The notes beneath the pieces are model-generated. The model saw only the letters and a program-made list of their open reading frames with translations. It ran no database searches and had not been told where the DNA came from. This document shows positions 39,159 to 63,989 of a DNA stretch of 64,000 bases, one piece after another. The stretch comes from an uncultured Spirochaetaceae bacterium (GTDB lineage: Bacteria; Spirochaetota; Spirochaetia; SZUA-6; DRHE01), in the NCBI GenBank assembly GCA_964490725.1, contig CAZBDU010000013.1, forward strand, positions 8,633-72,632, read 5' to 3'. The position numbers and the translations under genes are program-made. Position 1 is the stretch's first letter, and the number at the start of each line of letters is the position of its first letter.

Positions 39159-40028
39159 CTAGTCCTTCTTTCCCGGGCGTTGCCGGGGGCTGAGGGCCCC
39201 CGCTACATCGCCGAAGCGGGTCAGCTTGGCCTTGCTCTTTGCGGCCATGAGCTCATCGTAGCGCCGGTCATCCACCATGGCCACGAGTCGGCAGATGCTG
39301 GACTCCCCATCCACGAACCTCCATGGGAAGCAGCCAATGACCACCCGCTGGTTCAAGAGAAGATCTATGTCCCCTCCGGCGCACTCCAGGTGGATGATGC
39401 CGTGGTTGAACATCTCGATATGCATCAGTTGGTACTTGTCCTCGGGGAAGGCCTCCTCCAGGCTCCGACCGAACTTCTGGCGGAAGAAGGCATCGGCCTC
39501 CCGTGCCTGTCTGGGCATCCAGTTGCGGATAATTGTGTTCATCGGGTGATCTGCACTGCCGCAGTCTACGGCGATCCAGCGGATCCTTTTTCTTTTGGCC
39601 CATTCGGCGAACTCCCGGTCGGGGCCCGGGTGCTTCACCATGTAGCGGATCTCGTCAGCGGTGGGCTGGTCCCAACCGTAGTGATGGTAGCCGGTATGAA
39701 TGACCAGAATGTCTCCCTCCTTCACTTCCACCCGCTCCTCTACCTGGGCTGAGGTATACACATCGTAGTCCTGGGTGCAATCCGACAGATCCACTACCAC
39801 CCCTTCATGCACCAGAAAGTCCATGTCCAGAGAGGCGATGTCCTTGCCGGGCGTATGAAAGTGAATCTCCCCGTCCAGATGCGTGCCCACGTGGTTGGAG
39901 TGGGTCAGCAACTGTCCGTTGGCTCCATTGGGCGCCAGCCGTTTGAAGTACTTCACCTGTAGGGGTTCGTAGGTCGGCCAGGGCGGCGTGGCGATGCCGA
40001 TCGGGATGGTCAGGTCAATGAATTTCAC
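39159..40028 (-). CDS. Cyclase family protein (kynurenine-formamidase-like metal hydrolase fold)
   Basis: 289 aa. HxGTHxDxxxH motif as HVGTHLDGEIH. GTGA overlap with the upstream gene. Confidence 0.85.
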   Translation of the reverse strand: MKFIDLTIPIGIATPPWPTYEPLQVKYFKRLAPNGANGQLLTHSNHVGTHLDGEIHFHTPGKDIASLDMDFLVHEGVVVDLSDCTQDYDVYTSAQVEERVEVKEGDILVIHTGYHHYGWDQPTADEIRYMVKHPGPDREFAEWAKRKRIRWIAVDCGSADHPMNTIIRNWMPRQAREADAFFRQKFGRSLEEAFPEDKYQLMHIEMFNHGIIHLECAGGDIDLLLNQRVVIGCFPWRFVDGESSICRLVAMVDDRRYDELMAAKSKAKLTRFGDVAGALSPRQRPGKKD

Positions 40029-41305
40029 GGTTTCCTCCTGTGCTCACGCTGAATCTCGCCTTCTCCGTACTCCTGCACGAAGGTCTCGAAGGCTTCCTGA
40101 AAACAGGCCAGGGGCGGTTTGACCAACCCCGCGCCCACCATGCCGATCCCCGGCTCGCGGTGGGCGATCCCGGTGTTCACGGCCGGCAGAATCCCGGTTT
40201 CCACCACCTTGACCAAGTCAATCGCGGTGGGGGTGCCCCGGAAATCCAGGATAGGGATCCGGTAGGCGTCGTTCTCGGCCGTGGTGATCTCGTACATGGA
40301 CTGGCTGACGTTGAGGGCCTCGCGGGGGCTGCCGCCTACGAACTTGACAATGGCCGGGGCCGCAGCCATGGCAAAACCGCCGATGCCGGCTGTCTCGGTG
40401 ATCACCGAATCCCCTATGTCGGGGGCCGCGTCCGCCGCGGAGAAGCCCGGAAGATAGAGCCCGTCGACCGTGCTGGCCGGGGCGGTGAACCAACCCTCCC
40501 CCAGGCCCGACACGCGGATGCCGAAATCGGTGCCGTTGCGCGCCATGGTCCAAATCACTGAGCTGCCCTCGATGCCGGCTGCAGCGTCAGCGGTGCACTT
40601 GCAGGCCGGCATGGACAGGTTCAGGAAAAAGTGGTCGTTGCCGTGCATGAAGGAGAGCACTCGGGCGATCGCCTCACGGTCCGCATCGAGCCTGACCAGG
40701 TGGGGAGCCAGTTCCCGAATCAGCAGGGAGGTGCCGGCGCGGTTGCGGTTGTGCCCTTCGTCGCCCATCTGCAGGGCCTGGGCGATCAGGCTCTTCATGT
40801 CAATCTCTCCATGGCGCCGCAAGGCGGCCCGCAGCAGGGGCGCCAGCTCGGCGGCCATCCAGCGCAACCGCTCGATCACCTCATCGGAAAAGGCTCCGTA
40901 GCGCAAAACCTTGCCCAGCCCCTCGTTGAGGGTGCAGAACGCGCGGTTGCCGAAGCTCCTGTTCTCCAAGACCCACACCGGCATGCTCCAGCCGAGCACG
41001 CCGGCCATCGGCCCCACGGCGGAATGGTGATGGCAGGGTTCGAAGGCGATCTGCCCGGAGGCGGCCAGCCGCTGCGCTGCTTCGGGGTCAGAAGCCAGAC
41101 CCTCGAGGATCAGGGCGCCGATCACGGCTCCACGCATGGGGCCGCACATTCGCTCCCAGCCCACGGGGGGCCCGGCGTGCAGGATGAGATTGCGGCGCAG
41201 GCCAGGGACCACCTCTGCGGCGGTGGCGATGTCCACCAGGGTGGGTTTGCTCCCCAGCATCCGGGAGGCGGCTTCCTGGTTGGCCTTCACGATCCGCGAG
41301 TGCAT
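40025..41305 (-). CDS. DUF1116 family protein (YlbE-like)
   Basis: 426 aa. LILHAGPPVGWERMCGPMRGAVIGA..FEPCHHHSAVGPMAGV..NEGLGKVLRYGAF..GDSVITETAGIGGFAMAAAP..NTGIAHREPGIGMVGAGLVKPPLACF, collinear with E. coli YlbE as I recall it. AAGGAGG SD. Confidence 0.85.
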   Translation of the reverse strand: MHSRIVKANQEAASRMLGSKPTLVDIATAAEVVPGLRRNLILHAGPPVGWERMCGPMRGAVIGALILEGLASDPEAAQRLAASGQIAFEPCHHHSAVGPMAGVLGWSMPVWVLENRSFGNRAFCTLNEGLGKVLRYGAFSDEVIERLRWMAAELAPLLRAALRRHGEIDMKSLIAQALQMGDEGHNRNRAGTSLLIRELAPHLVRLDADREAIARVLSFMHGNDHFFLNLSMPACKCTADAAAGIEGSSVIWTMARNGTDFGIRVSGLGEGWFTAPASTVDGLYLPGFSAADAAPDIGDSVITETAGIGGFAMAAAPAIVKFVGGSPREALNVSQSMYEITTAENDAYRIPILDFRGTPTAIDLVKVVETGILPAVNTGIAHREPGIGMVGAGLVKPPLACFQEAFETFVQEYGEGEIQREHRRKP

Positions 41306-41314
41306 GGCGCCTCC

Positions 41315-41500
41315 TTATCGCCCCAGCCGGCGCAGCAGCCCGAGCAGGCGCTCGTCGCCGCCGGCAGGGGGGCGCCAGGCCATCTGCAATACTGTCACCC
41401 CTTGGCGCTGCAAGCTCTGCGCAAATAACTCCAGCCCCATGTTGATGCACTGAAGCTCGCCTGTGAACAGATCGCTGATTTTCCCGACGTCCGGTGTCAT
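41315..41500 (-). CDS. Small ORF (61 aa) in the same frame as, and 9 nt upstream of, the DUF1116 gene; resembles the N-terminal extension of longer DUF1116 proteins
   Basis: MTPDVGKISDLFTGELQCINMGLELFAQSLQRQGVTVLQMAWRPPAGGDERLLGLLRRLGR then TAA. ATGA overlap with the fdrA stop. Confidence 0.5.
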   Translation of the reverse strand: MTPDVGKISDLFTGELQCINMGLELFAQSLQRQGVTVLQMAWRPPAGGDERLLGLLRRLGR

Positions 41501-43086
41501 GGTGCCGTCTCCTCTTTCTCCCGTCGCGCCCGCAAAATGCGGCAGCTCAACCGAGCCGCCTGGTAGTTGGAGGGCATCACCAGGCAACCGACAGAGGCCA
41601 GTTTCGCTGTCTGCCGCTCCAGATTCTGCGGATCCCCTTCCGTTCCAGTAACCGAAGCGATCATAGCCAGCGCACCGCCGCGTCGTTTTGCCTTGGCCGA
41701 GGCCTCCCGCATGCTATTCAGCAGGGCTCCGGCCGGATCAGGGTGCGAACCGTAGCCCAGAACGAAGTCCAGGAGCAGCACGGCCACTTCAGGATCTTCG
41801 GCTTCCTTCAGGATACGCTCGGCACGGAGGCTGGGATCAATCATCGGGTGCGGCCGCCCCACGGTGAACACGTCGTCGCCCAGGTCTACGATTGTATGAG
41901 CCTGCGATCGCCAGGGGTCGCTCAGTCGCAGCTCAGCCCGAAGCTGATTGGTGGAGTAAACCTCGCCGATCTCCTGCTCCAGCAGGGAAAGGGCCTCATC
42001 GGCAAGAGTTCCACCGGAGAAGAGCCCGCGCACATAGCGCTGCTCGGCGGCCAGGGCGCCGCCTGCGCCGGTCACGAGTCGCTGCAGCTCTGGCTCAGGC
42101 AGGCTGAGGGCCTGCGGATCGTGAGGCCTGCCCTGCAGCAGGGACACGGCCAACCCAGCAGCTTCCTCCAGACTGCCGGCCTGGTGGACGCCCTCCGGAA
42201 GGCCGGAGCGCCCGGACAATCCCTGTGCCCCGACGAAATGCACCACCCCCGGTTTGCCCGAGCGCCCCAAACGGCTTAGCACTTTGCGGGCCACCTCCGG
42301 AGCCGGAGGCTTGGAGATGAGCACGATGATGTCGGTGTGGGGGTCTCGTTTGAGCGCTTCGATCCCCATGAGCATGGTGGAGCCGCCCACCTCCGGGCTC
42401 AAGTCCCGGCCCCCGGTGCCGATCGCCTGGGAAACCCCGCTGCCCAGCCGATGCAGCAGGCAGGCAACCTCCTGCAGGCCGGTGCCCGAAGCGGCCACCA
42501 GTCCTACGCGGCCGCGGCGCACTTCGTTGGCGAAGCACAGAGGCTTGCCGTCGATTATGGCGGTACCGCAGTCAGGGCCCATCAGCAGCAGACCCTTGCG
42601 GGCGGCCAGGTGTTTGAGAGCTACCTCCTGATCCAGCGGAACGTTGTCCGAGAACAGCATGACATGCAGGTCCCGCTCGAGGGCCAGGCGCGCTTCCCGC
42701 GCGGCGTATGCTCCGGGGACCGAGATGATCGCCAGGTTGGCTCCAGGCAGCAGCCGCAGCGCGCCCTCCAGGCTCACTGGACGGTAACCTTCAGCTGAGG
42801 CCACCTGCTGTTTCTGCTCGCCGAGAAGCTGGCGCACCCGCGCCAGGGCTTGGGCCGCTGCGGTTTCGCCCGTCGCCTCCACGGCGATCACCAGGTCGTT
42901 CGGGGTGGCCCACTCCAATTCGGGACAGGAAAAACCTATCCGCTCGAGCAGCTCCCGGTTGGTTTCGGTGGCCATGGCCACCACTGCCTCCGTTATGCCC
43001 GGCAGCTTCTTGACTTCGGCGCTGATGAGCATCAGGAAGACGGAATCGTGATAGGAGCCCTTGGCCACCAGAACCTGTCTCTTCAA
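41497..43086 (-). CDS. fdrA: FdrA family protein (succinyl-CoA-synthetase-alpha-like / acyl-CoA synthetase-like)
   Basis: 529 aa. N-terminus (TTG start) KRQVLVAKGSYHDSVFLMLIS, like E. coli FdrA. CoA-ligase-type Gly-rich segments are present. Confidence 0.85.
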   Translation of the reverse strand: MKRQVLVAKGSYHDSVFLMLISAEVKKLPGITEAVVAMATETNRELLERIGFSCPELEWATPNDLVIAVEATGETAAAQALARVRQLLGEQKQQVASAEGYRPVSLEGALRLLPGANLAIISVPGAYAAREARLALERDLHVMLFSDNVPLDQEVALKHLAARKGLLLMGPDCGTAIIDGKPLCFANEVRRGRVGLVAASGTGLQEVACLLHRLGSGVSQAIGTGGRDLSPEVGGSTMLMGIEALKRDPHTDIIVLISKPPAPEVARKVLSRLGRSGKPGVVHFVGAQGLSGRSGLPEGVHQAGSLEEAAGLAVSLLQGRPHDPQALSLPEPELQRLVTGAGGALAAEQRYVRGLFSGGTLADEALSLLEQEIGEVYSTNQLRAELRLSDPWRSQAHTIVDLGDDVFTVGRPHPMIDPSLRAERILKEAEDPEVAVLLLDFVLGYGSHPDPAGALLNSMREASAKAKRRGGALAMIASVTGTEGDPQNLERQTAKLASVGCLVMPSNYQAARLSCRILRARREKEETAP

Positions 43087-43099
43087 ACTTCGTTCCCAC

Positions 43100-44392
43100 C
43101 TACCGTTGGGCCAGACGGGAAGCCGCCTGCCGCCCCTCGGCGATCAGCCGTTCTTCATCCAGCCGGGTGAAGCGTTTCCCCTCCAACAGGACTTCGCCGT
43201 TTACAATGACGGTATCCACATTCTGAGGCCCGGCGGAGTACACGACCGCTGCTATGGGGTCGTGCGAGAAGACCGTATTCGGCTGCTGCATATCCAGAAT
43301 GGTGATATCGGCCAGGTACCCGCGTTTGAGCACTCCGGCCCGGATTCCCAGCGCCCGGGCACCGTTCACAGTGGCCATCCTCAACACATCGCGAGCAGTG
43401 ATCTGGGCGGCATTCATGTGGTGGATCTTCTGCAGGAGAGAGGCGGTCTTCATCTCGCTGAACATATCCAGCCGCCCCGTGCTGGCCGCTCCGTCCGTGC
43501 CCAGGCAGACATTGGCGCCCGTCCCGGCCAGCCTGCTCAGCGGGGAAACCCCGTCCGCAATGTACATGTTGGAGGTGGGGCAGTGCACTGTGCTGGATCG
43601 CGCCCGACCGAGTGCCTCGATCTCGTGATCGGCCAGGTTGCAGGAATGCACCCCGATGAAACGGCCATCCAGGATCCCCAGCTCGTGCATCAGCTCCGCA
43701 TCCCGCTTGCCCTCTCGCTGCTGGAGCAGGCGAATGTCCCCCTCGCTCTCGGCCAAATGGATATAGAAGAGCCGGCCATACGCGTCCGCCAACTCTTTCG
43801 TCTTACTCAACAGCCGAGTGGATACGTAACAGGGATGCATGGGGCCGGGAAATACGTTGGGGTGTCTTTCCAGCAGCGCCGCGGTGCTCTCAAGGATGCT
43901 CGCCTCGTCTTCCAGCAGGCTCGGATTCGCCTCGACCTCATAGAAGCCCCTGGCCAGGAACCCGCGAATTCGTGTTTCCGCGAAGGCGGCGAGCACGGTT
44001 TCGAAATGGGGATTGCCGTAGTTCATGTCCACAAGGCAGGTCACGCCGGACCGGATGTTCTCGGCGATGCCGAGCCGTGCCGCTGCCTGCATGTCCGGGG
44101 CTGAATACCGGTGCACCACGGGCCAGATCACCCGGCTCAGCCAATCCAGCAGGTTCAAATCCGCGCCGCGGGTTCGCAAGAACACCTGGAACAGGTGGCA
44201 GTGCAGGTTGGCGAAGCCGGGCAGGGCGTATTTCCCGGCTGCCCGGATGAGCTTGTCCGGGCGAAATGGGGGAGCCTGTGTTCTACCTCCCGCATACTCA
44301 ATTCGGTTGTCTTCGACGAGCACAATGCCGTCCTGGATCGCCTCGGCATGATCCATGGTGATGACCGTGGCTCCCTCGATGGCCAGCTTCAC
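43100..44392 (-). CDS. Amidohydrolase (TRZ/ATZ / SsnA / nucleobase-deaminase-like)
   Basis: 430 aa. GFANLHCHLFQ metal-binding HxH, HLAESE, GTDGAAS. GTGA overlap with the upstream gene. Confidence 0.85.
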   Translation of the reverse strand: MKLAIEGATVITMDHAEAIQDGIVLVEDNRIEYAGGRTQAPPFRPDKLIRAAGKYALPGFANLHCHLFQVFLRTRGADLNLLDWLSRVIWPVVHRYSAPDMQAAARLGIAENIRSGVTCLVDMNYGNPHFETVLAAFAETRIRGFLARGFYEVEANPSLLEDEASILESTAALLERHPNVFPGPMHPCYVSTRLLSKTKELADAYGRLFYIHLAESEGDIRLLQQREGKRDAELMHELGILDGRFIGVHSCNLADHEIEALGRARSSTVHCPTSNMYIADGVSPLSRLAGTGANVCLGTDGAASTGRLDMFSEMKTASLLQKIHHMNAAQITARDVLRMATVNGARALGIRAGVLKRGYLADITILDMQQPNTVFSHDPIAAVVYSAGPQNVDTVIVNGEVLLEGKRFTRLDEERLIAEGRQAASRLAQR

Positions 44393-45297
44393 CGCCTACT
44401 CCCTGCTGTACGTGCCTTCTCCAGGTACCACAACAGGCCCACTAAAGCGTCCGTGCCGGAAGTCTTCCCATGCGCCACGGCTTTCTCGACCACCTTGAAC
44501 ACGGCCTGCAATGGTGCGGCCCGGGTCAGCCCTCGCACGGCAGAAAGCAGGTAGGCAGGAAAGCTCCCTCGCAGGGCCAGCCAGAGCAAGGTCCTCCCGC
44601 CCGGGCTGGAGCGGTCAAGCGTCGATCGGATACGCTCCGAGTCGATGCGCGGCGCTCCCGCGCGCTGCAGCATGAGCGCCCTCTCCCCCAGCAACATGCC
44701 GGCCAGGAAATCGTCTCCGGAAGGGGTAAAGCCTGGTCCCAGCCCTACGAGATCCTCCAGCCCCTGCAGAATCGGAGGATCAGAAGTCATTTCGACCCGG
44801 CGAAGAGTTGCAGCGGCGTACTCCCGGAAGGGGTTGGTCCCCTGCAGAGGGCCGAGTTCCCGCTGGAACCGGCCCGCCGCTTCGGATCTCGCCAGCCCGA
44901 GAAACCCTCCTGGCTCGCCGCAGGCCCCCAGGGCTCGGGCCAGGTCCGCAGCCTTCTCGGTGAGGCACCCACGCGAATCGAATTCTGATGGTGCAGCCGC
45001 GCGCACATCCCGCCCGCGCAGCCGGCCCCGCCAGAGCCGGCAGCCGCTCAGACAGACCTCGATACTTCCGACGCGCAGGCGGGTCCCAACTCGTTTCATG
45101 ACCGCTCCCACCACCGGGGGACGCCGGACCCGTTCCGGCAGCAGGACGGCCATGGCCGTCATCCGGTCCCGGCTGTTCACGAAGGACAGAAGCAACCCGT
45201 CGTCAAGAAGGACATTAACGGCGTCTGGATAACTGGCAACCACAGCCCCCCGCCCGCAGCAGCGGTTGACATGGCAACCGACAGTCAGGCTCGTCAC
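44389..45297 (-). CDS. DUF2877 family protein (YlbF-like)
   Basis: 302 aa. Signature GLGPGFTPSGDDFLAGMLLG and C-terminal GKTSGTDALVGLL. GTG start, uncertain. Confidence 0.75.
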   Translation of the reverse strand: MTSLTVGCHVNRCCGRGAVVASYPDAVNVLLDDGLLLSFVNSRDRMTAMAVLLPERVRRPPVVGAVMKRVGTRLRVGSIEVCLSGCRLWRGRLRGRDVRAAAPSEFDSRGCLTEKAADLARALGACGEPGGFLGLARSEAAGRFQRELGPLQGTNPFREYAAATLRRVEMTSDPPILQGLEDLVGLGPGFTPSGDDFLAGMLLGERALMLQRAGAPRIDSERIRSTLDRSSPGGRTLLWLALRGSFPAYLLSAVRGLTRAAPLQAVFKVVEKAVAHGKTSGTDALVGLLWYLEKARTAGSRR

Positions 45298-45325
45298 GCT
45301 CGTCCCATGCTCGTTTTCAGCTTGC

Positions 45326-45718
45326 TCAGGGCAGGCGGGCGAACAAGCCGTAGATCTCCTTGCCGGAGCGTTCCGTGGTCACTCCGGGCTCGGCGAGCAG
45401 CTCCATGCCGGTCTTCGGATCGTCCACTTCCAGCCGGACGCTGGCTTTCAAGCCGTTCTCGAAGGCCACGACTCCGAACAGCAGGAACTTCACGTCGTAC
45501 CCTTCGGGAAGCGCGTATACCCGCGTCCAGCCCAGCAGCTTGCACTTGCCCCCCAGCGGGACCTTCTCCCAGGGAGAGAAGAACACCGCCGACGGGTCCC
45601 GCCTGGTGTGACATTTGCCGCACACCATGGGCGCCGGGTAATAGAGCGTCCCGCAGGTCGGGCACTTGAGCGCGTTGACCTCTGCCTGTTGTTGGCCGTA
45701 AACGCTGAAATCGATCAT
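45326..45718 (-). CDS. Zn-ribbon/OB-fold DUF35 protein (thiolase partner)
   Basis: 130 aa. CPTCGTLYYPAPMVCGKC zinc ribbon followed by an OB-fold-like region. ATGA overlap with the thiolase gene. Confidence 0.8.
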   Translation of the reverse strand: MIDFSVYGQQQAEVNALKCPTCGTLYYPAPMVCGKCHTRRDPSAVFFSPWEKVPLGGKCKLLGWTRVYALPEGYDVKFLLFGVVAFENGLKASVRLEVDDPKTGMELLAEPGVTTERSGKEIYGLFARLP

Positions 45719-46920: not shown

Positions 46921-46931
46921 CCCGAGCCTCG

Positions 46932-56649: not shown

Positions 56650-56660
56650 GCTCCTCGCTC

Positions 56661-57338
56661 TCAATAGTTCTTGACCTGCACGCCGTACGGGTCGCGGTGC
56701 GCCCGTTCGACCAGATCCTGCGGACGCAGCTTGCCGCGGTCGAACCTCTCCTCGTGAGTGAAGTCAGCCGGGTTTCTGCGCTCCGGCGGAGTCTTGGCCG
56801 GTCCGCCGGGGTATCCCAGAGGCAGGCTGCAGATCACCTTCAGCGGGTCGGGGACCCCCAGGATCGCCTTCACCTCCTCCGGGTAGAAGTTGGTGAACAC
56901 AGCCGAGCCCAGCCCCAGGGCGTGCGCCGCCAGCAGCATGTTCTGGATGGCCATGCTCACGCTGCCCCACAGGGCGAAAAGCTCCATCTGGTCGTCCACC
57001 CCGTGCATCATGCTGACGTACTGGAAACGGGGGTCCGCGCAGATCACCAGCTGTAAGGGAGCCTCCAGCAGATACCCGCCGGTGAAAGTGCGCAGGAAGG
57101 GGAAATCCCTAAGCTCCTTGATGCGAGCCACCACCCGCCGCACGCTCTTCTGGATGCGCTCCCGGGTGGCCAGGTCCCTGACCACGACGACGTCCCAGGG
57201 CTGGGAGTTCGCGCTGGAGGGAGCCCAGCGGCCGGCCTCGATGACCGCGCGGATCGCCTCCTCGGGCACCGGGTCCGGCTTGTAGGCGCGGACCGTTCGC
57301 CGCCCGCGCACGATCGACAACAGCTCTTCGGCTTGCAT
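56661..57338 (-). CDS. Nitroreductase family protein
   Basis: 225 aa. RRTVRAYKPDPVPEEAIRAVIEAGRWAPSSANSQPWDVVVV. Confidence 0.85.
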   Translation of the reverse strand: MQAEELLSIVRGRRTVRAYKPDPVPEEAIRAVIEAGRWAPSSANSQPWDVVVVRDLATRERIQKSVRRVVARIKELRDFPFLRTFTGGYLLEAPLQLVICADPRFQYVSMMHGVDDQMELFALWGSVSMAIQNMLLAAHALGLGSAVFTNFYPEEVKAILGVPDPLKVICSLPLGYPGGPAKTPPERRNPADFTHEERFDRGKLRPQDLVERAHRDPYGVQVKNY

Positions 57339-57348
57339 GCCTTTCTCC

Positions 57349-58668
57349 CTACCTGGCCTTCTTCTCCGCCGCCGTCAGGGCCTTCTCGAAGACCTCCAGC
57401 ACCCTCCCGGCCTGCTCGCGACTAAGGCAAAGGGCCGGCTGGAAGCGGATGCGGTTATAATAGAAGCCTCCCCGGCCGAGCAGCACGTTCTGCTTCAGCG
57501 CCTCGTCGAGGATCGTGGTGAGCACCTCGTTGCCTGCCGGGGTGCGGGCCTTCTTGTCGCTCACGATCTCGGCGCCGATCATCAGCCCCCGGCCCTGGAC
57601 GTCGTCCAGGAACGGGTGGCTGCGGCTGAGCTGGAGGAGCCCCTCCTTCAGGAACTCCCCGACCTCCCGGGCATTGTCCATCAGCTTCTCTTCGACGATA
57701 ACCTCCAGGCTCGCCAAGGCCGCCCGGCAGCTCACCGGGTTACCGCCGAAGGTGGAGAAGTCGGGGCCGGGGAACGAGTCGGCTACCTGGGCGCTGGCCA
57801 TCACCGCCCCGATCGGCAGTCCCCCGCCCAGCGCCTTGGCAACGGTGATCACGTCGGGCGTCACCCCGCAGTGCTCGATGCCGAACCACTTGCCGGTGCG
57901 CCCGAAGCCGGTCTGCACCTCGTCCACCAGCAGGAGGATCTTGTTCTCGTCGAGGATGGGCTTCAGGACCTTGAAGTAGTCCGGCGGGGCGCACACGATG
58001 CCGCCGATGCCCTGGATGGTCTCGACCATGACGGCGGCCACGCGCCTGCAGGTCTGGCTCTTGAGCAGCACGTCCAGGTAGCGGGCGCAGGCGGTCCCGC
58101 ACTTCTCCGGGTCCTTGTGCCCCAGCGAGCAGCGGTAGCAGTGGTAGCCCGGCAGGTGCGTCGCTCCCGGCATGAACGGCCCCAGGCCCGCTCGCCAGGA
58201 GCCCAGCCCGGTCAGGCTCATGGTGAAGCCGCCGCGGCCGTAGAAACCGTTCTGCAGGCCCAGCAGCTCGAACTTGCCCGTGGCAACCCGGGCCAGGGTC
58301 AGGGCGTGCTCATTGGCCTCCGTGCCGGAGTTGCAGAAGAACACCCTGGCCCTGCCGCGGTCCATCGGGGAAATCTCCGAGAGTTTCTTGGCCAGCAGGG
58401 GCATGGGCACCGTGCGGTAGAGGGTGGACATGTGGGTCAGCTTGCCCACCTGGTCGCGGACCGCCTGCACCACCTTGGGGTGGGTGTGGCCGACATTCAG
58501 GACCGCAACCCCGCTGAAGCAGTCGATGTACTCCTGCCCCTCCAGATCGGTGACCACGGCCCCGTGCCCTGCAACGAAGACCTTGTCGTTCCAGGCCTCC
58601 ACGGACTTCATCAGGTACCTGTCCTGCAGCTCGATCAGCTGTCTGCTCGTAAGCCTTTTCTCATCCAC
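57349..58668 (-). CDS. Class III (omega) aminotransferase, PLP-dependent
   Basis: 439 aa. DCFSGVAVLNVGHTHPKV.., LLLVDEVQTGFGRTGKWF.., VTVAKALGGGLPIG. Confidence 0.9.
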   Translation of the reverse strand: MDEKRLTSRQLIELQDRYLMKSVEAWNDKVFVAGHGAVVTDLEGQEYIDCFSGVAVLNVGHTHPKVVQAVRDQVGKLTHMSTLYRTVPMPLLAKKLSEISPMDRGRARVFFCNSGTEANEHALTLARVATGKFELLGLQNGFYGRGGFTMSLTGLGSWRAGLGPFMPGATHLPGYHCYRCSLGHKDPEKCGTACARYLDVLLKSQTCRRVAAVMVETIQGIGGIVCAPPDYFKVLKPILDENKILLLVDEVQTGFGRTGKWFGIEHCGVTPDVITVAKALGGGLPIGAVMASAQVADSFPGPDFSTFGGNPVSCRAALASLEVIVEEKLMDNAREVGEFLKEGLLQLSRSHPFLDDVQGRGLMIGAEIVSDKKARTPAGNEVLTTILDEALKQNVLLGRGGFYYNRIRFQPALCLSREQAGRVLEVFEKALTAAEKKAR

Positions 58669-58680
58669 GGCGTGGGCTCC

Positions 58681-60009
58681 TCATCTTCTGGCCTTGATCA
58701 CCCGCTGGGCCGCCTCCGCCGCGCTGTCGATGACCTCGCGCTCGTCCACCGTGAGCATTCGGCGAGCCTTCATCACCACCCGCCCGTCGATGATGACCGT
58801 GTCTACGTTCTCCCCGTGGGCGGCGAAGACCAGGTGGGCGTAGACGTTGAAGTTCTTGCCGGTGAAAAGCGGGGTCAGCGAGGGGGCGCGCATGTTCACC
58901 AGGATCACGTCGGCCTTCTTGCCGGCTTCCAGGGAGCCGATCTCCTTTTCCAGCCCCAGCGCCATGGCCCCCCCGCGGGTGGCCATGGACAGCACCTGCT
59001 CGGAGGGCAGGAGGCTCGCGTCGGTGTGCACCGCTTTCTGGAACAGGGATGCGTACTTCATGACCTCGAACATGTCGTTGTTGTTGTTGCACGGGGCATC
59101 ATCGGTCCCCAGGCCGACGTTGATGCCCGCCTTCAGGTAGTCCACCGTCCGGGCCACCCCATTGCCCAGCTTGGCGTTGGAGACGGGGTTGTAGGAGATG
59201 TGCGTGCCGGTGTCACGCATGATCTGGATCTCGCGGTCCGAAAGCCAGACGCAGTGCGCGGCCACCACGTCCGGGCCCAGCAGGCCCAGCGCGTGGACGA
59301 ACTCCACCGGCGGCTTGCCGTATTTCTCGGTGCACATCCGGACTTCTTCCCTGGATTCGTTCAAGTGCACATGGATGCCCACCCCGTGCTTGTCGGCCAG
59401 CTCCCGGCAGCGGCGGATGTACTGCTCGGAGCAGACCGGCACCCACTCCACCCCGAACCGGAAGGTGATGCGCCCTCCCGCCGAGTTGTTCCGTTCCAGG
59501 AGCGCCCGCTCGTTGTCCTCCAGACTCTCCTGCCCGGGCACCAGGTCCGCCCCTTCGCTGGACAGCACCGCCCGGATGCCCACTCTCTCCGCCGCGTCGG
59601 CCAGAGCCGGCAGCTTGATGTACATGTCGTTGACGCAGGTGGTCCCGCCCTTGATCACCTCCGTGTAAGCCAGCAGGCCCGCTTTGCGGGCGTCCTCCGG
59701 GCCCATAGCCGCGAGCATCGGGTAGTAGATTGTTTCCAGCCAGGCCTCCAGCCCCAGGTGCTCCCCCACCCCACGGGAGAAATTGTCCGAGTGCAGGTGC
59801 AGGTTCACCAGCCCCGGCATCACCACCATACCGCGGGCGTCCAGCTGCTCCCGGCCGCGGTACCGCTTCCGCAGCTCACCGGTTGCCCCCACCTCCACGA
59901 TGCGCCCCCGATCGATGGCCGCGCCGCCGTCGTCCAGCACGCGCCGTCGCTCGTCCATGGCGAGCACGATCCCGCCGTGTATCAGGATGTCCACGTCCCG
60001 TGCAGGCAT
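58681..60009 (-). CDS. Amidohydrolase (TRZ/ATZ, MTA/SAH- or nucleobase-deaminase-like)
   Basis: PGLVNLHLHS, HVHLNESREE, GLGTDDAPCNNN. ATG at 60009 after GGGAGGA preferred; the track ORF starts at TTG 60018. Confidence 0.85.
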   Translation of the reverse strand: MPARDVDILIHGGIVLAMDERRRVLDDGGAAIDRGRIVEVGATGELRKRYRGREQLDARGMVVMPGLVNLHLHSDNFSRGVGEHLGLEAWLETIYYPMLAAMGPEDARKAGLLAYTEVIKGGTTCVNDMYIKLPALADAAERVGIRAVLSSEGADLVPGQESLEDNERALLERNNSAGGRITFRFGVEWVPVCSEQYIRRCRELADKHGVGIHVHLNESREEVRMCTEKYGKPPVEFVHALGLLGPDVVAAHCVWLSDREIQIMRDTGTHISYNPVSNAKLGNGVARTVDYLKAGINVGLGTDDAPCNNNNDMFEVMKYASLFQKAVHTDASLLPSEQVLSMATRGGAMALGLEKEIGSLEAGKKADVILVNMRAPSLTPLFTGKNFNVYAHLVFAAHGENVDTVIIDGRVVMKARRMLTVDEREVIDSAAEAAQRVIKARR

Positions 60010-60024
60010 CGTCCGCAATCCTCC

Positions 60025-61845
60025 CTACAGCCCCAGCCTTCGCAGGAGCTCCGTGGTGGGCCTGCCCTCCGGGGTCCAGCCGCGCTTCTGGTAGTATTCC
60101 CTCAAAAGAACGTCCAGCTCGACCACCTGTTTCGCCGATCCGCCCTCGGCGTGCGGCTCCTCGAGGAACCGCCGGGGCAGGCAGTCCTGGCTCGGGCTCA
60201 TGCCCTCCCGCCAGTTGAAGAGGCGTTCCAGGTTGAACACCCGCTCGCCAACCTGCTCCAAAGCCTCTTTGGAACCCAGCTCGCTGAAGCCCGTGGCCGC
60301 CGGGAGCAGCCGGGCCATGGTGTCCTGGTCGATGACCCCTAGCTGGGTGGGGAAAGCGCAGACTCCGGTGGAGTCGTACATGCAGGACTTGTTCTGGTTG
60401 GCCACGGTCAGCGCCGCCTTGCCGTCGGTGGTGAAGCGGTCGAAGGCCGGGTCGAACAGCTCCGGTTCGGCGTAGCCGGTGTGGTGGCAGCCCCCGCGGG
60501 GGGAGGTCGCATAGGCCAGCGCCTGGGACTTGGCGCCCCGCGGGTCGTAGCCGGCCAGCTCCATCCCCTTCACCTCGAGCGCGTAGGCTTCCGCGCCCAT
60601 GCCGATGGACTTCGCGGCCCGCAGCACCCCTTCGCCCAGCAGCCGTCCCAGCCCTTCGCGGCGGCCCATCCGCTTCAACAGCTCGATCATCGCCCGGTGG
60701 TTGCCGAAGCGCAGCTCCAGTCCGCCGGTGTCGCGGTGGCTCAGGATTCCGCGCTCGTACAGCTCCATGGCGAAGGCGCAGATATTGCCCGCCGAAATCG
60801 TGTCCACCCCGTATTCGGTGCAGAGCTGGTCGGCGCGGATGATCGCCGGAAGCGAGCTCACGCCGCAGTCCGAGCCGAAGGCGTAGATCGTTTCGTATTC
60901 CGGGCCTCGGCAGCGGGCCCCGGCGTATTCGCCCTCCCTCACCTCCGAGAGTGAAATACAGACCACGGGGCAGCGGTGGCAGGTGATCTTTTTCACCACG
61001 AAGCTCTTCAGCAGGCTTTCCCCGTTGATCTGCTCGTGGAAGGAGCACTCCCCGCTCTGGTAGTTTCGCGTCCCCAGGAGCCCGAGCTTGTTCATGGGCG
61101 AAACGATGTAGGGCGTCCCGTACTGCCGCCATTCCTGGAAGAAGTCGTTGTCCCGGAACAGCTTCATTTCCTGCTCGACGATTGCCCGGAAGCTCTTCGG
61201 GTCCGCAGCCTCCAGCTTGTTGGTCGCCGTCCCCCGCGCGACAATGCCCTTGAGGTTCTTGGAGCCGAACACGGCGCCCGTTCCTCCCCGCCCCACGAAG
61301 CGGTGGTCCCCGTACAGGCAGGCGATCCGCGCCTGCAGCTCGCCCGCCGGGCCGATGCACAGCGCCCGGGCCCTGCGGTCCGTGGCGGCGAGCAGCTCGG
61401 ACTCGGTCTCCGGACAGCTCTTGCCGCGCAGCTCTCCGCAGGGGCGCAGCTCCGCCCGCCCGTCCCGGATCCAGAGGTAGCACATCTCCCTCGCGCGCCC
61501 ACTGAGGATCACGGCATCAAAGCCGGCGAACTTGAGCTCCGGGCCGAAGAAGCCGCCGCAGTTGCCCATACAGATCATGCCGGTCAGGGGCGACTTGGTG
61601 GTCACGTTGGTGCGCGAGCTGAACGGCGAGGCCGTGCCGGTCAGCGCACCCGCTGTCAGGACCACCACGTTTTCCGGGGAGAGGGGGTCGGTCCCGGCAG
61701 GCAGCCGGTCGTAGAGCAGGCGGGCCCCCAGACCGCGGCCGCCGATGTAGCGGGCGAGCAGGCGCTCGTCGGTGCTCTCCGATCCGATCACCCCGCTCGC
61801 CAGGTCAACGATCAGCACCTTTCCGGCGTAGGCGCCCCGCATCAC
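60025..61845 (-). CDS. Aldehyde:ferredoxin oxidoreductase family tungsten enzyme (second copy in the window)
   Basis: 606 aa. AGKVLIVDLASG..YIGGRGLGARLLY..; Cys motif CHRCPVVC. Start is GTG 61845 or ATG 61842, overlapping the 2Fe-2S gene stop. Confidence 0.9.
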   Translation of the reverse strand: MMRGAYAGKVLIVDLASGVIGSESTDERLLARYIGGRGLGARLLYDRLPAGTDPLSPENVVVLTAGALTGTASPFSSRTNVTTKSPLTGMICMGNCGGFFGPELKFAGFDAVILSGRAREMCYLWIRDGRAELRPCGELRGKSCPETESELLAATDRRARALCIGPAGELQARIACLYGDHRFVGRGGTGAVFGSKNLKGIVARGTATNKLEAADPKSFRAIVEQEMKLFRDNDFFQEWRQYGTPYIVSPMNKLGLLGTRNYQSGECSFHEQINGESLLKSFVVKKITCHRCPVVCISLSEVREGEYAGARCRGPEYETIYAFGSDCGVSSLPAIIRADQLCTEYGVDTISAGNICAFAMELYERGILSHRDTGGLELRFGNHRAMIELLKRMGRREGLGRLLGEGVLRAAKSIGMGAEAYALEVKGMELAGYDPRGAKSQALAYATSPRGGCHHTGYAEPELFDPAFDRFTTDGKAALTVANQNKSCMYDSTGVCAFPTQLGVIDQDTMARLLPAATGFSELGSKEALEQVGERVFNLERLFNWREGMSPSQDCLPRRFLEEPHAEGGSAKQVVELDVLLREYYQKRGWTPEGRPTTELLRRLGL

Positions 61846-62312
61846 AGCTTGCCTCCCTGCCCGGAGGCCTGCTGCACCGCCTCGATGATCTTCTTGTAGC
61901 CCGTGCAGCGGCAGAGGTTTCCGGACAATCCACGCTTGATCTCTTCCTCATCGGGCTTGGGCTTTTCGTCCAGCAGCGCCTTGGCCGCCAGCACCATGCC
62001 GGGGGTGCAAAACCCACACTGCAGGGCGCCTGTTTCCAGGAACGCCTGCTGGATCGGGTGGGGGCTCTCCCGGCTGCCCAGCCCGGCGGCCGTGAGGATC
62101 GAGCAGCCCTCCGCCTGCAGCACCAGCACCAGGCAGGAGTCCACGAGCTTCCCGTCCAGGATCACCGAGCAGGAGCCGCAGTCCCCGCGGCTGCAGCCCC
62201 GCTTGACCTCCGTGCAGTCCAGCTCATCCCGGAGGAAGTCCAGCAGGGTCTGCCCTGGACGGGCCCAGCCCTCGCGCCAGGCGCCGTTGACCTTGATGCG
62301 GATCCGCTTCAC
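61842..62312 (-). CDS. (2Fe-2S)-binding small subunit of a xanthine dehydrogenase / CoxS family enzyme
   Basis: 156 aa. GCSRGDCGSCSV and QCGFCTPGM..LCRCTGY motifs. Confidence 0.9.
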   Translation of the reverse strand: MKRIRIKVNGAWREGWARPGQTLLDFLRDELDCTEVKRGCSRGDCGSCSVILDGKLVDSCLVLVLQAEGCSILTAAGLGSRESPHPIQQAFLETGALQCGFCTPGMVLAAKALLDEKPKPDEEEIKRGLSGNLCRCTGYKKIIEAVQQASGQGGKL

Positions 62313-63199
62313 GGCCTGCCCCCTTGGGTTGGAAGCCGGGACCAGGCCGCGTGGATCGTCCGCTCGACCATTACCTTGGCCATGTCTTTGCGGTACGCCG
62401 CCGAGCCCCGGAACACGGAATCCCGGGGCGTAGAAGCGGCTGCGGCCGCCTCCGCCGCCAGCCTGACCCGCTTTGAGTCATAAGATCCCTGGCACAGCAC
62501 CTTCTCGGCCTCCCTCGCCCTCAGCGGGACCGCGGCCACCGGGCCCAGCACGATGCGCGCCTCGCTCACTGCCCCGTCCTGCCGGCGCAGCCGGACGGCG
62601 CAGCCCAGAACCGGCAGGGTCAGGGCCTGGCGGCGCATCATCCGGCTGTAGGCGGAAGCCTCCTCCCGGTCGTGCAGGCGCAGAAGCAGCCCGGTGACCA
62701 TCTCACGTGTGGAGTCGACAGCGCTTCCCCCTGCTTCGCGGTAGGCCTGCTCGATCGGAAGCTCGCGCGCGCCCTCCGGGGAACGCAGCAGAAGCACCGC
62801 GTCCAGGGCCAACAGCGGCAGGGCAGCGTCCGCGGCCGGCTGTGCCGAAACCACGTTGCCCACCAGGGTAGCCCGGTTCCTGATCTGCGGGCCGCCGACC
62901 CAGGCGCAGCCTTCGGCCAGCGCGGCAGCCCTCCGCACCAGCTCCGGGCTGCCTTCCGCCTGGGTCATGGTGACCCTGGCGCCGAGCCTCACCCTGGCGC
63001 CGCCGTCCTGCAGCTCGATGGCATCGAGATTGGGAATCCTGGCGGTGTCCACCAGCACTTCGCAGAGCAGCTTACCTTCGTGCAGGGCCACCACCAGGTC
63101 CGTGCCACCGGCGATCAGCCGGGCCTCGCCGCGCTCATTGGCCAGGAGGGTCAGCGCCTCTTGCACGCTTTCCGGAAAATGATGCGCCCGAATCTGCAT
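62309..63199 (-). CDS. FAD-binding (CoxM/XdhB-like) subunit of a molybdenum hydroxylase
   Basis: MQIRAHHFPESVQEALTLL..ARLIAGGTDLVV..IRNRATLVGNV.. Start placed at the internal ATG 63199. Confidence 0.85.
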   Translation of the reverse strand: MQIRAHHFPESVQEALTLLANERGEARLIAGGTDLVVALHEGKLLCEVLVDTARIPNLDAIELQDGGARVRLGARVTMTQAEGSPELVRRAAALAEGCAWVGGPQIRNRATLVGNVVSAQPAADAALPLLALDAVLLLRSPEGARELPIEQAYREAGGSAVDSTREMVTGLLLRLHDREEASAYSRMMRRQALTLPVLGCAVRLRRQDGAVSEARIVLGPVAAVPLRAREAEKVLCQGSYDSKRVRLAAEAAAAASTPRDSVFRGSAAYRKDMAKVMVERTIHAAWSRLPTQGGRP

Positions 63200-63221
63200 C
63201 CCGCCGCTCCGTCCTCCCGGC

Positions 63222-63989
63222 CTATTCCTCGACGAAGGCCACCGCGCGCACGAACCCGGCACTGCCCTTGGAGAACTTGATCGGAAAACCGAAGAACTTG
63301 AAGCCGAACGGCGGCAGCAGTTCCAGGTGAGCCAGCTTCTCGTAGTGGGCGTACTCCCTCTTCCTGCCCAGCAGGTGGCAGGGCCAGAGGTACTTCGGGT
63401 CCCGGCCGTGGTCCTTGTAGTTCTTCGACCAGTGGGCGTACCCGATGTCGAAGCTCCAGGCGTCGGTCCCCACGGTCTTGATCCCCTGGTCCAGCACCCA
63501 GGACAGGGCGTCCGCGGACAGGTGCCCGCCGTGGTCCGCGTAGCCGGGCTGGCCGAACAGCTTGTCGTTGCCGGTCATCGCCAGGAAAATGTCGTTGGGC
63601 TTCAGCTTGTAGCCGATCTTGTTCAGTCGCTCCTGCAGCTCCTTGGGGGAGAGGGAATACCCCTCGGGCAGGTCGCGAATGTCGACCACCACCCCGTCGC
63701 CGTAGCACCATTCCAGGGGCCACTCGTCGATGGTCTTGGCCGGCTTTCCCGCGCATTCCGGCCCCATGTGCCACGGGGAATCCAGGTGGGTGCCGGCATG
63801 CGTGGTCATCTCCAGGAAGTCGTCCGCCCAGGCCTTGCCCGGGGTTGGCCAGTCCTGCGGGTCGATGCCGTAGCACCGCTGGTCCTCCTTGGCTCCGTTT
63901 TCGTGCGGGAGATTCGTGATCTTCACGTTCATCAGGGGGCTGGGATCGCTCTGTGTCACCATCGACAGATCGATGATCTTGGTAGCCAT
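63222..63989 (-). CDS. Cyclase family protein (second copy)
   Basis: 255 aa. HAGTHLDSPWH motif. First recognisable gene of the long minus-strand cluster inside the window. Confidence 0.8.
   Translation of the reverse strand: MATKIIDLSMVTQSDPSPLMNVKITNLPHENGAKEDQRCYGIDPQDWPTPGKAWADDFLEMTTHAGTHLDSPWHMGPECAGKPAKTIDEWPLEWCYGDGVVVDIRDLPEGYSLSPKELQERLNKIGYKLKPNDIFLAMTGNDKLFGQPGYADHGGHLSADALSWVLDQGIKTVGTDAWSFDIGYAHWSKNYKDHGRDPKYLWPCHLLGRKREYAHYEKLAHLELLPPFGFKFFGFPIKFSKGSAGFVRAVAFVEE

Follow-up and report, generated by a model that had tools for sequence, protein, structure and literature searches.

A 25-kb spirochaetal gene array that may encode oxygen-independent catabolism of a pyrimidine-type heterocycle

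A 64,000-nucleotide stretch of DNA from an uncultured Spirochaetaceae bacterium (GCA_964490725.1, contig CAZBDU010000013.1, positions 8,633 to 72,632; hereafter the window) carries an array of 23 consecutive genes, all on the minus strand, running from position 63989 down to 39159. The array is a fusion of two separately conserved modules, here named Module B (63989-47692) and Module A (47624-39159), that are joined only in this lineage. We give about an even chance to the reading that the array encodes an oxygen-independent catabolic route for a pyrimidine-type heterocycle. The array would be a catabolic gene cluster made from known superfamilies plus one unnamed family. The initial annotation, made from the sequence alone, had proposed a catabolic cluster for an N-heterocycle in an anaerobe, and the analysis supports this. 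It had also remarked that the combination is not a described pathway; in accordance, no published description of this gene combination was found in the full-text literature searched. The single "hybrid route" that it envisaged is replaced by the two modules, which became apparent on comparison of gene neighbourhoods.

The map of the array rests on the listing of open reading frames (ORFs), on GC content by codon position and on independent gene calls. Because the window is GC-rich (about 65%), ORF lists are full of shadow frames, and coding frames were selected by third-position GC (GC3 = 0.74-0.93). The independent calls were taken from an identical 15.6-kb public contig (L001) and agree with the map. 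One apparently fused ORF was split into an ABC permease gene and an M20 gene. Eleven junctions overlap by 1-22 nucleotides (nt) each: by 4 nt at 62309-62312, 61842-61845, 56661-56664 and 54370-54373 in Module B and at 45715-45718, 44389-44392, 41497-41500 and 40025-40028 in Module A, by 22 nt at 52811-52832, by 7 nt at 50527-50533 and by 1 nt at 51792. The widest gap, between permease 1 and the BMP gene, is 115 nt, and the other gaps are 6-67 nt. One gene caller places the start of AllH 48 codons downstream, implying a 172-nt gap, but the longer ORF is preferred because the N-terminal residues that would be cut off are kept in orthologues. The strand, the estimate of about 23 genes, the at least 10 overlaps of 1-22 nt with their listed coordinates and the largest gap in the initial annotation are thus all correct.

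The first ATG of the array is only 11 nt from the window end, and therefore the 5' boundary lies outside the window. Of the extent given initially, 63989-39159, the 3' end at 39159 stands, but the 5' limit does not, as the unit continues upstream in relatives. What is seen here is 25 kb of a longer operon-like unit, whose host is most likely a high-GC spirochaete living in groundwater or sediment. Scans for consensus promoters and terminators inside the array found nothing above shuffled expectation, and no significant fold lies downstream of cyclase 2 (z = -1.0). A gathering-threshold Rfam scan of the window and four relatives (L086, L088, L090 and L091) gave no match, and no thiamine pyrophosphate (TPP) riboswitch. 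Co-direction, the 11 overlaps and the lack of a terminator-like site above chance are compatible with one transcript but do not prove it.

Module A is widespread. One genome per species was scanned with an alignment of the family of the GNAT-fold protein, the signature gene of the module; 292 stretches matched and 80 loci (hereafter core loci) were fetched. Fifty-three of these are from Spirochaetota (Treponema, Sphaerochaeta, Gracilinema, Rectinemataceae), 14 are from Verrucomicrobiota, Kiritimatiellia or Lentisphaerae, and a few are from Caldisericota, Deltaproteobacteria and Acidobacteriota. All window proteins were compared by tblastn with 85 loci. The thiolase-like protein is matched in 82 of the 85, DUF35 in 79 (where its gene lies beside the thiolase-like gene), cyclase 2 in 58, AllG in 55 and AllF in 53. 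The identity of cyclase 2 is mostly 76-89%, with a small group at 50-53%. An enzyme of the xanthine dehydrogenase (XDH) family is present in about 45 of the 85, with a molybdenum (Mo) subunit only 30-35% identical to that of the window. Cyclase 1, the aldehyde:ferredoxin oxidoreductase (AOR), both amidohydrolases, the aminotransferase, the nitroreductase, the ABC system, the M20 protein and the TenA-fold protein are essentially absent from the 85 loci.

The usual order of Module A in Treponema, Sphaerochaeta and Gracilinema is AllF-AllG (often fused), cyclase, GNAT, thiolase-like and DUF35, followed by GntR, AllH, carbamate kinase, the XDH-family FAD, FeS and Mo subunits and an NCS2 permease. 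The permease of the core loci scores 357 bits against the uracil permease model, 282 against RutG and 229 against the xanthine permease model. The carbamate kinase, present in some of the spirochaete core loci, passes the cut-off of the arcC equivalog. Across Spirochaetota, Verrucomicrobiota, Caldisericota and Lentisphaerae (L006-L085), identity to the window protein is 72-82% for the GNAT-fold protein and mostly 76-89% for cyclase 2, and in the same loci only 43-63% for AllF and 51-75% for DUF35. This excess of identity in the GNAT-fold protein and cyclase 2 would imply recent horizontal spread or unusually strong constraint. The trio of GNAT-fold, thiolase-like and DUF35 genes stands without AllF, AllG and cyclase at L027, L037, L048-L052, L061, L064, L070, L078 and L079 (Verrucomicrobiota and relatives). 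There the trio adjoins a divergent ORF, nitrilase-like by eye, together with TonB/ExbD-type and TPR genes.

Module B is defined by the orthologue group of the Mo subunit, which spans 65-92% identity before a drop to 54%. Its gene order recurs, with Mo-subunit identities of 88% in L088/L089, 71% in a contig from the Joint Genome Institute (JGI), 68% in L090, 67% in L091, 66% in L096 and 65% in L094. The order is cyclase 1, FAD subunit, FeS subunit, AOR (in some), amidohydrolase A, aminotransferase, nitroreductase, Mo subunit, ABC ATPase, permease, M20 (absent from some), permease and BMP. Wherever upstream sequence exists, a GntR/FCD regulator, RidA and an AllG paralogue lie upstream of cyclase 1, and therefore cyclase 1 is not the first gene of the unit. 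The AllG paralogue, which always precedes cyclase 1 in relatives, is 49% identical to the window AllG and is not accompanied by AllF or AllH.

In addition, a thiaminase-I homologue is encoded in five of the five lineages with upstream sequence (L088, L090/L097, L091, L094 and L096). It has 499-503 residues in four full-length cases and 410 residues, on the opposite strand, in the nearest relative. The protein scores 43-48 bits against Pfam PF22141 (gathering score 27) and matches the solved thiaminases 4KYS (E = 5e-25) and 2THI (E = 2e-19). The catalytic residues Cys113 ("CTN") and Glu241 ("YSE") are aligned and conserved, and a signal peptide or lipobox is present. Only five loci came up in a metagenome scan for this thiaminase subfamily, and two of them have Module B. 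In one locus from a sediment metagenome (L099, 3518-7264), a 268-residue GNAT homologue (58% identity), a thiolase-like gene and a DUF35 gene are directly followed by a 411-residue thiaminase-I homologue; in another (L098, 3-1781), only the DUF35 end of this arrangement is kept. CCG-domain and LarA-like genes lie upstream, and in L098 a transposase gene follows.

What follows Module B differs among lineages. The window lineage has the TenA-fold gene there, with Module A after it, and the close relative L086 ends after DUF35, without the block from AllH to cyclase 2. In the 71% JGI contig, the TenA-fold gene is followed by unrelated genes. In L090 and L094, an alcohol dehydrogenase, a 245-residue GNAT homologue (35% identity), a carboxyltransferase and OAD_gamma come after Module B. 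The genes of the array are collected in Table 1.

Table 1 Genes of the array, listed from its 5' to its 3' end
Gene product	Coordinates	Strand	Length (aa)	Module	Assignment and remarks
Cyclase-family metal hydrolase 1	63222..63989	-	255	B	Pfam PF04199, 105 bits; first visible Module B gene
FAD subunit of XDH-family Mo hydroxylase	62309..63199	-	296	B	Pfam FAD_binding_5, CO_deh_flav_C
2Fe-2S subunit of Mo hydroxylase	61842..62312	-	156	B	Pfam Fer2_2, Fer2
Aldehyde:ferredoxin oxidoreductase (AOR)	60025..61845	-	606	B	Pfam AFOR_N, 233 bits; AFOR_C, 435 bits
Amidohydrolase A, TRZ/ATZ or deaminase type	58681..60018	-	445	B	Pfam Amidohydro_1, 229 bits
Class III (omega-amine) aminotransferase	57349..58668	-	439	B	Pfam Aminotran_3, 347 bits
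Nitroreductase-fold flavoprotein	56661..57338	-	225	B	Pfam Nitroreductase, 127 bits
Molybdopterin (Mo) subunit of hydroxylase	54370..56664	-	764 (by ORF)	B	Pfam Ald_Xan_dh_C, MoCoBD_1, MoCoBD_2
ABC importer ATPase, two nucleotide-binding domains	52811..54373	-	520	B	Pfam ABC_tran, two copies
ABC permease 2	51792..52832	-	346	B	Pfam BPD_transp_2
M20 ArgE/DapE-type deacylase	50527..51792	-	421	B	Pfam Peptidase_M20, M20_dimer; between both permease genes
ABC permease 1	49607..50533	-	308	B	Pfam BPD_transp_2
BMP/PnrA-family substrate-binding protein	48433..49491	-	352	B	Pfam Bmp, 133 bits; signal peptide
TenA-fold (haem-oxygenase-like) protein	47692..48372	-	226	B	Pfam TENA_THI-4, 40.7 bits (gathering score 22)
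GNAT-fold protein	46932..47624	-	230	A	AlphaFold and Foldseek; signature gene of Module A
Thiolase-fold protein without nucleophilic Cys	45715..46920	-	401	A	Pfam Thiolase_N, Thiolase_C_1
DUF35/ChsH2-type zinc-ribbon protein	45326..45718	-	130	A	Pfam zf-ChsH2, 24 bits; partner of the thiolase-like protein
AllH (DUF2877) subunit	44389..45297	-	302	A	Pfam AllH, 64.5 bits
Amidohydrolase B, TRZ/ATZ or deaminase type	43100..44392	-	430	A	Pfam Amidohydro_1
AllF/FdrA, main part	41497..43086	-	529	A	NCBIfam PRK06091; Pfam Ligase_CoA, CoA_binding
AllF, detached C-terminal segment	41315..41500	-	61	A	Overlaps the AllF stop by 4 nt; separate gene on L001
AllG (DUF1116) subunit	40025..41305	-	426	A	Pfam AllG, 339 bits
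Cyclase-family metal hydrolase 2	39159..40028	-	289	A	Pfam PF04199, 109 bits; last gene of the array

The signature protein of Module A has no Pfam, NCBIfam or PDB sequence match, and a PDB search with a profile of its family is empty as well. More than 2,500 proteins in the database, spread over several phyla, are 73-93% identical to it. Its AlphaFold2 model (predicted local distance difference test, pLDDT, 91.7) matches PatZ, RimJ, SpeG, Rv0998 and others at a Foldseek probability of 1.0, with E down to 2e-6 and template-modelling (TM) scores of about 0.5, which bears out the "possible GNAT" of the initial annotation. The loop expected to bind coenzyme A (CoA) reads R118-G-L-R-I-G123-A, which is near, but not identical to, the canonical Q/R-x-x-G-x-G/A, and G123 is invariant.

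The thiolase-like protein can be aligned end to end with archaeal thiolases (259 bits to 7YVY). In the aligned stretch it reads VENGPASGASAV, compared with IEAACASGGAAV in 7YVY and VEAACASGSLAL in 6ESQ. In particular, the active site is "ENGPASG" where the archaeal enzymes have "EAACASG", and this Cys-to-Pro change is found in 82 of 83 thiolase-like orthologues; the His of "GHPVGATG" is kept. With Pro in place of the nucleophilic Cys, no covalent acyl-enzyme can form. A canonical thiolase step was therefore rejected, and the CoA-dependent thiolytic step proposed initially is unlikely.

GNAT paralogues that are 35-40% identical adjoin genes of biotin-dependent Na+-decarboxylases. In L092 (257-7441) and L093, a 246-residue GNAT homologue stands with a carboxyltransferase, BirA, a BioY/ECF biotin importer, a biotin carrier and OAD_beta, a predicted Na+-pumping biotin decarboxylase set with a GNAT-type partner. 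The GNAT family is repeatedly followed by a decarboxylase-type partner, which is either the biotin system or the Cys-less thiolase-like/DUF35 pair.

The remainder of Module A contains the three subunits of AllFGH. FdrA, DUF1116 and DUF2877 were demonstrated in 2024 to form the oxamate carbamoyltransferase of E. coli, which converts oxalurate and phosphate to oxamate and carbamoyl phosphate, from which carbamate kinase makes ATP (PMC11326118). The initial annotation had assigned fdrA-ylbE-ylbF to the E. coli allantoin locus; the homology holds, but that description is outdated by this work. AllF passes PRK06091, "acyl-CoA synthetase FdrA" (511 bits against 433), and is 40% identical to E. coli FdrA. 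AllG is 48% identical to E. coli YlbE/AllG over its full length and 67-84% identical to core-locus orthologues, and AllH is 33% identical to YlbF/AllH across the C-terminal domain. By alignment, the 61-residue segment corresponds to residues 566-617 in the AllF-AllG fusion protein from Treponema and 510-545 in E. coli FdrA. AllF consists of two ORFs here but is fused to AllG (about 1,035 residues) in Treponema metagenome-assembled genomes (MAGs), and subunit boundaries are evidently fluid. The subunit set is present, and identities of 33-48% are compatible with a different acyl-urea substrate. Amidohydrolase B, which shares 32% identity with amidohydrolase A, has been inserted into Module A in this lineage only and has no counterpart in the 80 core loci. 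The solved structures closest to cyclase 2 are, weakly, kynurenine formamidases.

Families in both modules were assigned by Pfam and NCBIfam, and NCBIfam scores were compared with curated cut-offs. Every family named in the initial annotation was recovered in this way. No Mo-hydroxylase subunit reaches an equivalog model, and the two amidohydrolases, the aminotransferase and the nitroreductase also score under every curated cut-off. The FAD subunit is below the cut-off of every NCBIfam equivalog; its start at 63199 fits the 295-residue orthologue in L088. The Mo subunit, whose orthologues have 757-761 residues, has the alpha subunit of 4-hydroxybenzoyl-CoA reductase as its closest solved structure (466 bits). 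The equivalogs of that enzyme are not reached (alpha 634 against 995, beta 98 against 405, gamma 160 against 258), nor are those of xanthine dehydrogenase (XdhA 583 against 780, XdhB 195 against 310, XdhC 172 against 217). Identity as 4-hydroxybenzoyl-CoA reductase or true xanthine dehydrogenase was therefore rejected, and the enzyme is taken simply as a member of the Mo-hydroxylase family. The AOR gene sits among the hydroxylase subunit genes; it is found in the window lineage and the 71% JGI contig and is absent from L090, L091 and L094. The best NCBIfam models of amidohydrolase A, N-ethylammeline chlorohydrolase and 5'-deoxyadenosine deaminase, are both below cut-off, and the aminotransferase reaches no equivalog; both proteins are conserved at every Module B locus. 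The nitroreductase scores 98 against the BluB model (cut-off 150) and 52 against the RutE model (cut-off 152). Cyclase 1 shares 93% identity with its orthologue in L088, 82% with that in L090 and only about 30%, over 84 residues, with cyclase 2; a look-up of its exact sequence returned no record.

The importer in Module B consists of an ATPase, two permeases and a BMP protein with the N-terminus MKKGYLLLGVVLLLGLVGQMVFAGG. The ATPase fits best the NCBIfam model "putative B6 ABC transporter ATP-binding protein" (403 bits; cut-off 670), and a "B6 transporter" identity was rejected, as scores are far below cut-off. The M20 protein encoded with it passes PRK08596, "acetylornithine deacetylase" (544 bits against 412), and TIGR01910. 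It may be equivalent to the Bacillus deformylase YlmB.

The TenA-fold gene is located at the seam of the two modules. Its family, which comes from spirochaete MAGs, is very small, with 29 clusters at 60% identity or more. The AlphaFold model (pLDDT 93) has as its top Foldseek match a TenA/Thi-4 thiaminase bound to hydroxymethylpyrimidine (HMP; TM 0.69-0.73). Cys112, Cys146, Glu212, Phe215 and Tyr115/118 are invariant in the family, and only two His are conserved. The spacing of Cys146, Glu212, Phe215 and Tyr115/118 presumably resembles that of TenA. The invariance of Cys146 and Glu212 and the small number of conserved His favour a TenA-like hydrolase over a di-iron oxidase; the oxidase role was rejected on the count of His and the anaerobic setting.

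We infer the substrates, on the basis of homology and gene neighbourhood, and likewise the order of steps and the chemistry of the trio. In relatives, Module B has a GntR regulator, RidA, an AllG paralogue and a secreted thiaminase-I homologue at its head, which makes the aminopyrimidine part of thiamine, or something closely analogous, the leading candidate substrate. Two further pointers to a thiamine-type pyrimidine are the resemblance of the TenA-fold protein to HMP-bound TenA and the ArgE-type equivalog passed by the M20 protein. In the proposed upper pathway, the BMP-type ABC system would import an aminopyrimidine, and the M20 deacylase and the TenA-fold hydrolase would deacylate or hydrolyse its side chain. 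The aminotransferase would convert an aminomethyl or omega-amino group to an aldehyde, which the AOR, using ferredoxin, would oxidize to the acid, a role that alcohol dehydrogenase may take in other lineages. Amidohydrolase A would deaminate the ring, the Mo hydroxylase would add a ring oxo group from water, and cyclase 1 would open the ring, with RidA removing enamine or imine intermediates.

For Module A in other genomes, we propose that the Mo enzyme hydroxylates a uracil-like ring to a barbiturate-type trione and that cyclase 2 opens the trione to an acyl-urea of the malonurate type. AllFGH would cleave the acyl-urea with phosphate to carbamoyl phosphate and a malonamate-type amide, and carbamate kinase, if present, would make ATP from the carbamoyl phosphate. 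The GNAT-fold protein and the Cys-less thiolase-like/DUF35 pair would convert the C3 acid unit to a thioester and decarboxylate it to an acetyl unit and CO2. In the last step, the Cys-less thiolase fold may act as a decarboxylase, recalling the KSQ and CLF ketosynthases. The most specific form of the proposal is the first catabolic, as distinct from salvage, pathway for the thiamine pyrimidine, with release by thiaminase I, import and anaerobic ring opening feeding a new energy-conserving pyrimidine lower pathway, whose AllFGH-type enzyme would form carbamoyl phosphate or else an acyl phosphate; we hold this form to be rather unlikely. Quite speculatively, the AllG paralogue of Module B might phosphorolyse an N-acetyl imide and so give acetyl phosphate.

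Several observations weigh against a pyrimidine route in general or against thiamine in particular. In Verrucomicrobiota, the trio is present without AllF, AllG or cyclase, and therefore its function may exceed pyrimidine breakdown. To our knowledge, a GNAT acting in the amide-to-thioester direction has no precedent. The Mo hydroxylase of the window is not orthologous to that of the core loci (30-35% identity), and tblastn found no carbamate kinase in the 64-kb window. The window has no thiaminase-I gene; one is predicted from relatives with 65-88% Mo-subunit identity. The TenA-fold protein has no phmmer match to solved TenA proteins at E <= 1, and in Foldseek its model fits the chlamydial protein CADD about equally well as TenA. 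The usual ligands of BMP-family proteins are nucleosides or purines and not aminopyrimidines in free form. The 2-methyl group of the thiamine pyrimidine gives no ureido group, which leaves AllG and AllFGH without an obvious role in a thiamine route. Thiamine is scarce, and so a 25-kb operon for its catabolism is surprising.

Four other explanations were weighed against the pyrimidine route. The array could degrade urate, xanthine, allantoin or oxalurate anaerobically, with the Mo hydroxylase serving as a xanthine or urate enzyme, SsnA-like amidohydrolases opening the ring, an M20 protein equivalent to YgeY and AllFGH acting on oxalurate as in E. coli. AllF, AllG and AllH are indeed homologous to the E. 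coli oxalurate enzyme, XDH-family, SsnA-like and M20 genes occur together in published anaerobic urate clusters, and BMP proteins are typically purine or nucleoside receptors. However, SsnA models give 251 and 249 bits against cut-offs of 455 and 444, and YgeY models give 126 and 117 against 321. A YgfK-type reductase, a hydantoinase, a YgeW-type carbamoyltransferase and a YgeX-type lyase are absent among the family assignments of the array, as are, unlike in the E. coli locus, proteins of the allantoinase, allantoate amidohydrolase and ureidoglycolate dehydrogenase types. The core-locus carrier is nearest to uracil permease, not to a xanthine or urate permease, the approximately five enzyme functions of the core loci are too few for a purine, and the thiaminase-I and TenA-fold neighbours indicate pyrimidines. 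Both the 2,8-dioxopurine urate pathway and the E. coli allantoin locus were rejected, as most of their genes are missing and the models are unreached. We consider a purine or ureide route improbable, and the purine and urate leaning of the initial annotation is weak in light of these scores and is countered by the uracil-permease-like carrier and the thiaminase-I homologue. Some other heterocycle (for example s-triazines or biuret, pterins or flavins, vitamin B6, or a modified nucleoside), with the thiaminase-I-like protein using another quaternary or benzylic-type substrate, is quite unlikely as well. The best NCBIfam models of both amidohydrolases are s-triazine hydrolases and those of the transporter are components of a "putative B6 ABC transporter", all below cut-off; the nitroreductase is nearest to BluB, and the Mo subunit to 4-hydroxybenzoyl-CoA reductase. 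Matches so far below curated cut-offs indicate superfamily membership only, and this explanation accounts neither for the uracil-permease-like carrier and carbamate kinase of the core loci nor for the conserved catalytic residues of thiaminase I.

Salvage or detoxification is a further explanation, in which Module B would recover HMP from degraded thiamine or antivitamins and the redox enzymes would repair oxidized forms. A thiaminase-I homologue, an ArgE-type M20 deacylase and a TenA-fold protein do co-occur, known thiaminase-I operons contain salvage genes (PMC5627462), and oxidized thiamine fragments are without known salvage routes (PMC11223231). We regard this explanation as highly improbable. 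Together, a ring deaminase, a ring hydroxylase and two hydrolases of the ring-opening type would break the pyrimidine down and not save it, and ThiD-, ThiE- and ThiM-type families are neither assigned in the array nor recorded among the called genes of relatives. The window, L086, L088, L090 and L091 gave no TPP riboswitch, GntR/FCD-type regulation is typical of catabolic operons, and relatives join the module to energy-yielding decarboxylase or carbamoyl-phosphate-forming genes. Lastly, the modules, and perhaps the transporter block too, could be independent operons for unrelated substrates that happen to stand head to tail. Each module is found alone elsewhere, the three largest gaps (115, 60 and 67 nt) lie around the seam, at permease-BMP, BMP-TenA and TenA-GNAT, and L086 stops after DUF35. 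Mere adjacency is nevertheless hardly probable. A GNAT-family homologue comes after Module B in three distinct arrangements, those of the window lineage, L090 and L094, and the trio of L099 is directly followed by a thiaminase-I homologue. An AllG-cyclase pair occurs in both modules, and the seam has no terminator- or promoter-like site above chance. Because the linkage of the modules is repeated and independent, we argue for a metabolic connection.

The proposed pyrimidine route can be compared with several known systems. Aerobic actinomycetes degrade pyrimidines oxidatively by uracil/thymine dehydrogenase, barbiturase (mentioned in PMC3758960) and ureidomalonase. As in the scheme proposed for Module A, an Mo enzyme converts uracil to barbiturate, which is opened hydrolytically to ureidomalonate (malonurate). 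Barbiturase has the cyanuric-acid-hydrolase ("Toblerone") fold, whereas the proposed opener of Module A is a PF04199 cyclase. The proposed cleavage by phosphate to carbamoyl phosphate would conserve energy, in contrast to hydrolysis to urea and malonate, and the host of the array is an anaerobe.

The allFGHK system of E. coli (PMC11326118) has three subunits of the same families, and spirochaete core loci also pair carbamate kinase with AllH; the chemistry expected is likewise phosphorolysis of an N-acyl-urea to carbamoyl phosphate. Unlike in the array, the E. coli genes are flanked by allB, allC, allD and allE, and only allFGH is common to both. AllF is split into 529 and 61 residues in the array and fused to AllG in Treponema. 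The genes are always accompanied here by a cyclase-family hydrolase and by the GNAT/thiolase-like/DUF35 trio, a set missing from E. coli, a second AllG paralogue belongs to Module B, and the substrate is probably not oxalurate. The anaerobic urate route via 2,8-dioxopurine uses XdhD, YgfK, SsnA, HyuA, YgeW, YgeY, YgeX and YqeA (bioRxiv 10.1101/2025.04.24.650524; PMC12507026). It resembles the proposed route in oxygen-free nucleobase use, an XDH-family enzyme, an Amidohydro_1 ring opener, an M20 hydrolase and ATP formation via carbamoyl phosphate and carbamate kinase, but its carbamoyltransferase is YgeW, of the ornithine carbamoyltransferase (OTC) fold, and that of the array is AllFGH.

Thiamine salvage by YlmB and TenA and the thiaminase-I operons of Paenibacillus and Clostridium botulinum (PMC5627462, which cites Jenkins et al. 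2007) resemble the array in its ArgE-type M20 protein and TenA-fold protein beside an importer, and the relatives in their secreted thiaminase-I homologue with the catalytic Cys and Glu. Thiamine salvage operons have ThiD, ThiE and ThiM as well as TPP riboswitches. In contrast to those systems, bacimethrin genes are absent, the binding protein is of the BMP family and not ThiY/NMT1, and the partners in the array are a ring deaminase, a hydroxylase and ring-opening-type hydrolases, a catabolic setting.

The trio has two structural and genomic counterparts. Thiolase/DUF35 assemblies (the complex of archaeal thiolase, HMG-CoA synthase and DUF35, 6ESQ; the benzoylsuccinyl-CoA thiolase BbsAB, 7PXP; PhlACB, 5M3K) are the closest solved structures and likewise combine a thiolase fold and DUF35 with a third catalytic partner, but in the array the nucleophilic Cys is Pro and the third partner has a GNAT fold, unlike HMG-CoA synthase or a KAS III-like protein. 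Biotin Na+-decarboxylases (of malonate, methylmalonyl-CoA and glutaconyl-CoA) are comparable in that GNAT paralogues lie directly upstream of carboxyltransferase, biotin carrier, OAD_beta/OAD_gamma and biotin-supply genes; the window has no biotin components and has the thiolase-like/DUF35 pair instead. We know of no GNAT-type subunit in described biotin Na+-decarboxylase systems.

Beyond the end of the array at 39159 lie a 177-residue ORF without Pfam match (38088-38621, minus strand) and, on the opposite strand, a WYL/HTH_11 regulator (36811-37758). Farther out are a MatE exporter (33784-35208) and an ECF sigma factor with DUF6596 (32203-33534). The window has a second AOR (24996-27143, minus strand; 619 residues), 37% identical to the AOR of the array and directly followed downstream by a gene for a 92-residue ThiS/MoaD-like protein. 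An FGGY-family sugar kinase ORF of 733 residues (22046-24247) has a long N-terminal extension, possibly a mis-start, and a separate gene (28138-28980) encodes the N-terminal half of a transketolase; neither has any relation to the array.

If the proposed reading is true, the lower pathway, present in hundreds of genomes of spirochaetes, Verrucomicrobiota and other anaerobes, would be a third anaerobic route for pyrimidines beside the reductive and Rut pathways, one that conserves energy via carbamoyl phosphate. It gives a second context to AllFGH, which was identified only in 2024 and in one setting. The unnamed GNAT-fold family is highly conserved and absent from Pfam, and its decarboxylase-type partners suggest a function to test. 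The biological function of thiaminase I "remains a mystery" (PMC5627462), and the fate of oxidized thiamine fragments is unknown (PMC11223231). The upper module sets thiaminase I beside ring-destroying enzymes, and both questions become testable with a defined set of genes. Thiaminase-driven thiamine deficiency is a recognized problem in fish and wildlife. Catabolism of the thiamine pyrimidine, if true, would provide a physiological role for thiaminase I and reveal an anaerobic "oxidative" fermentation of uracil in spirochaetes.

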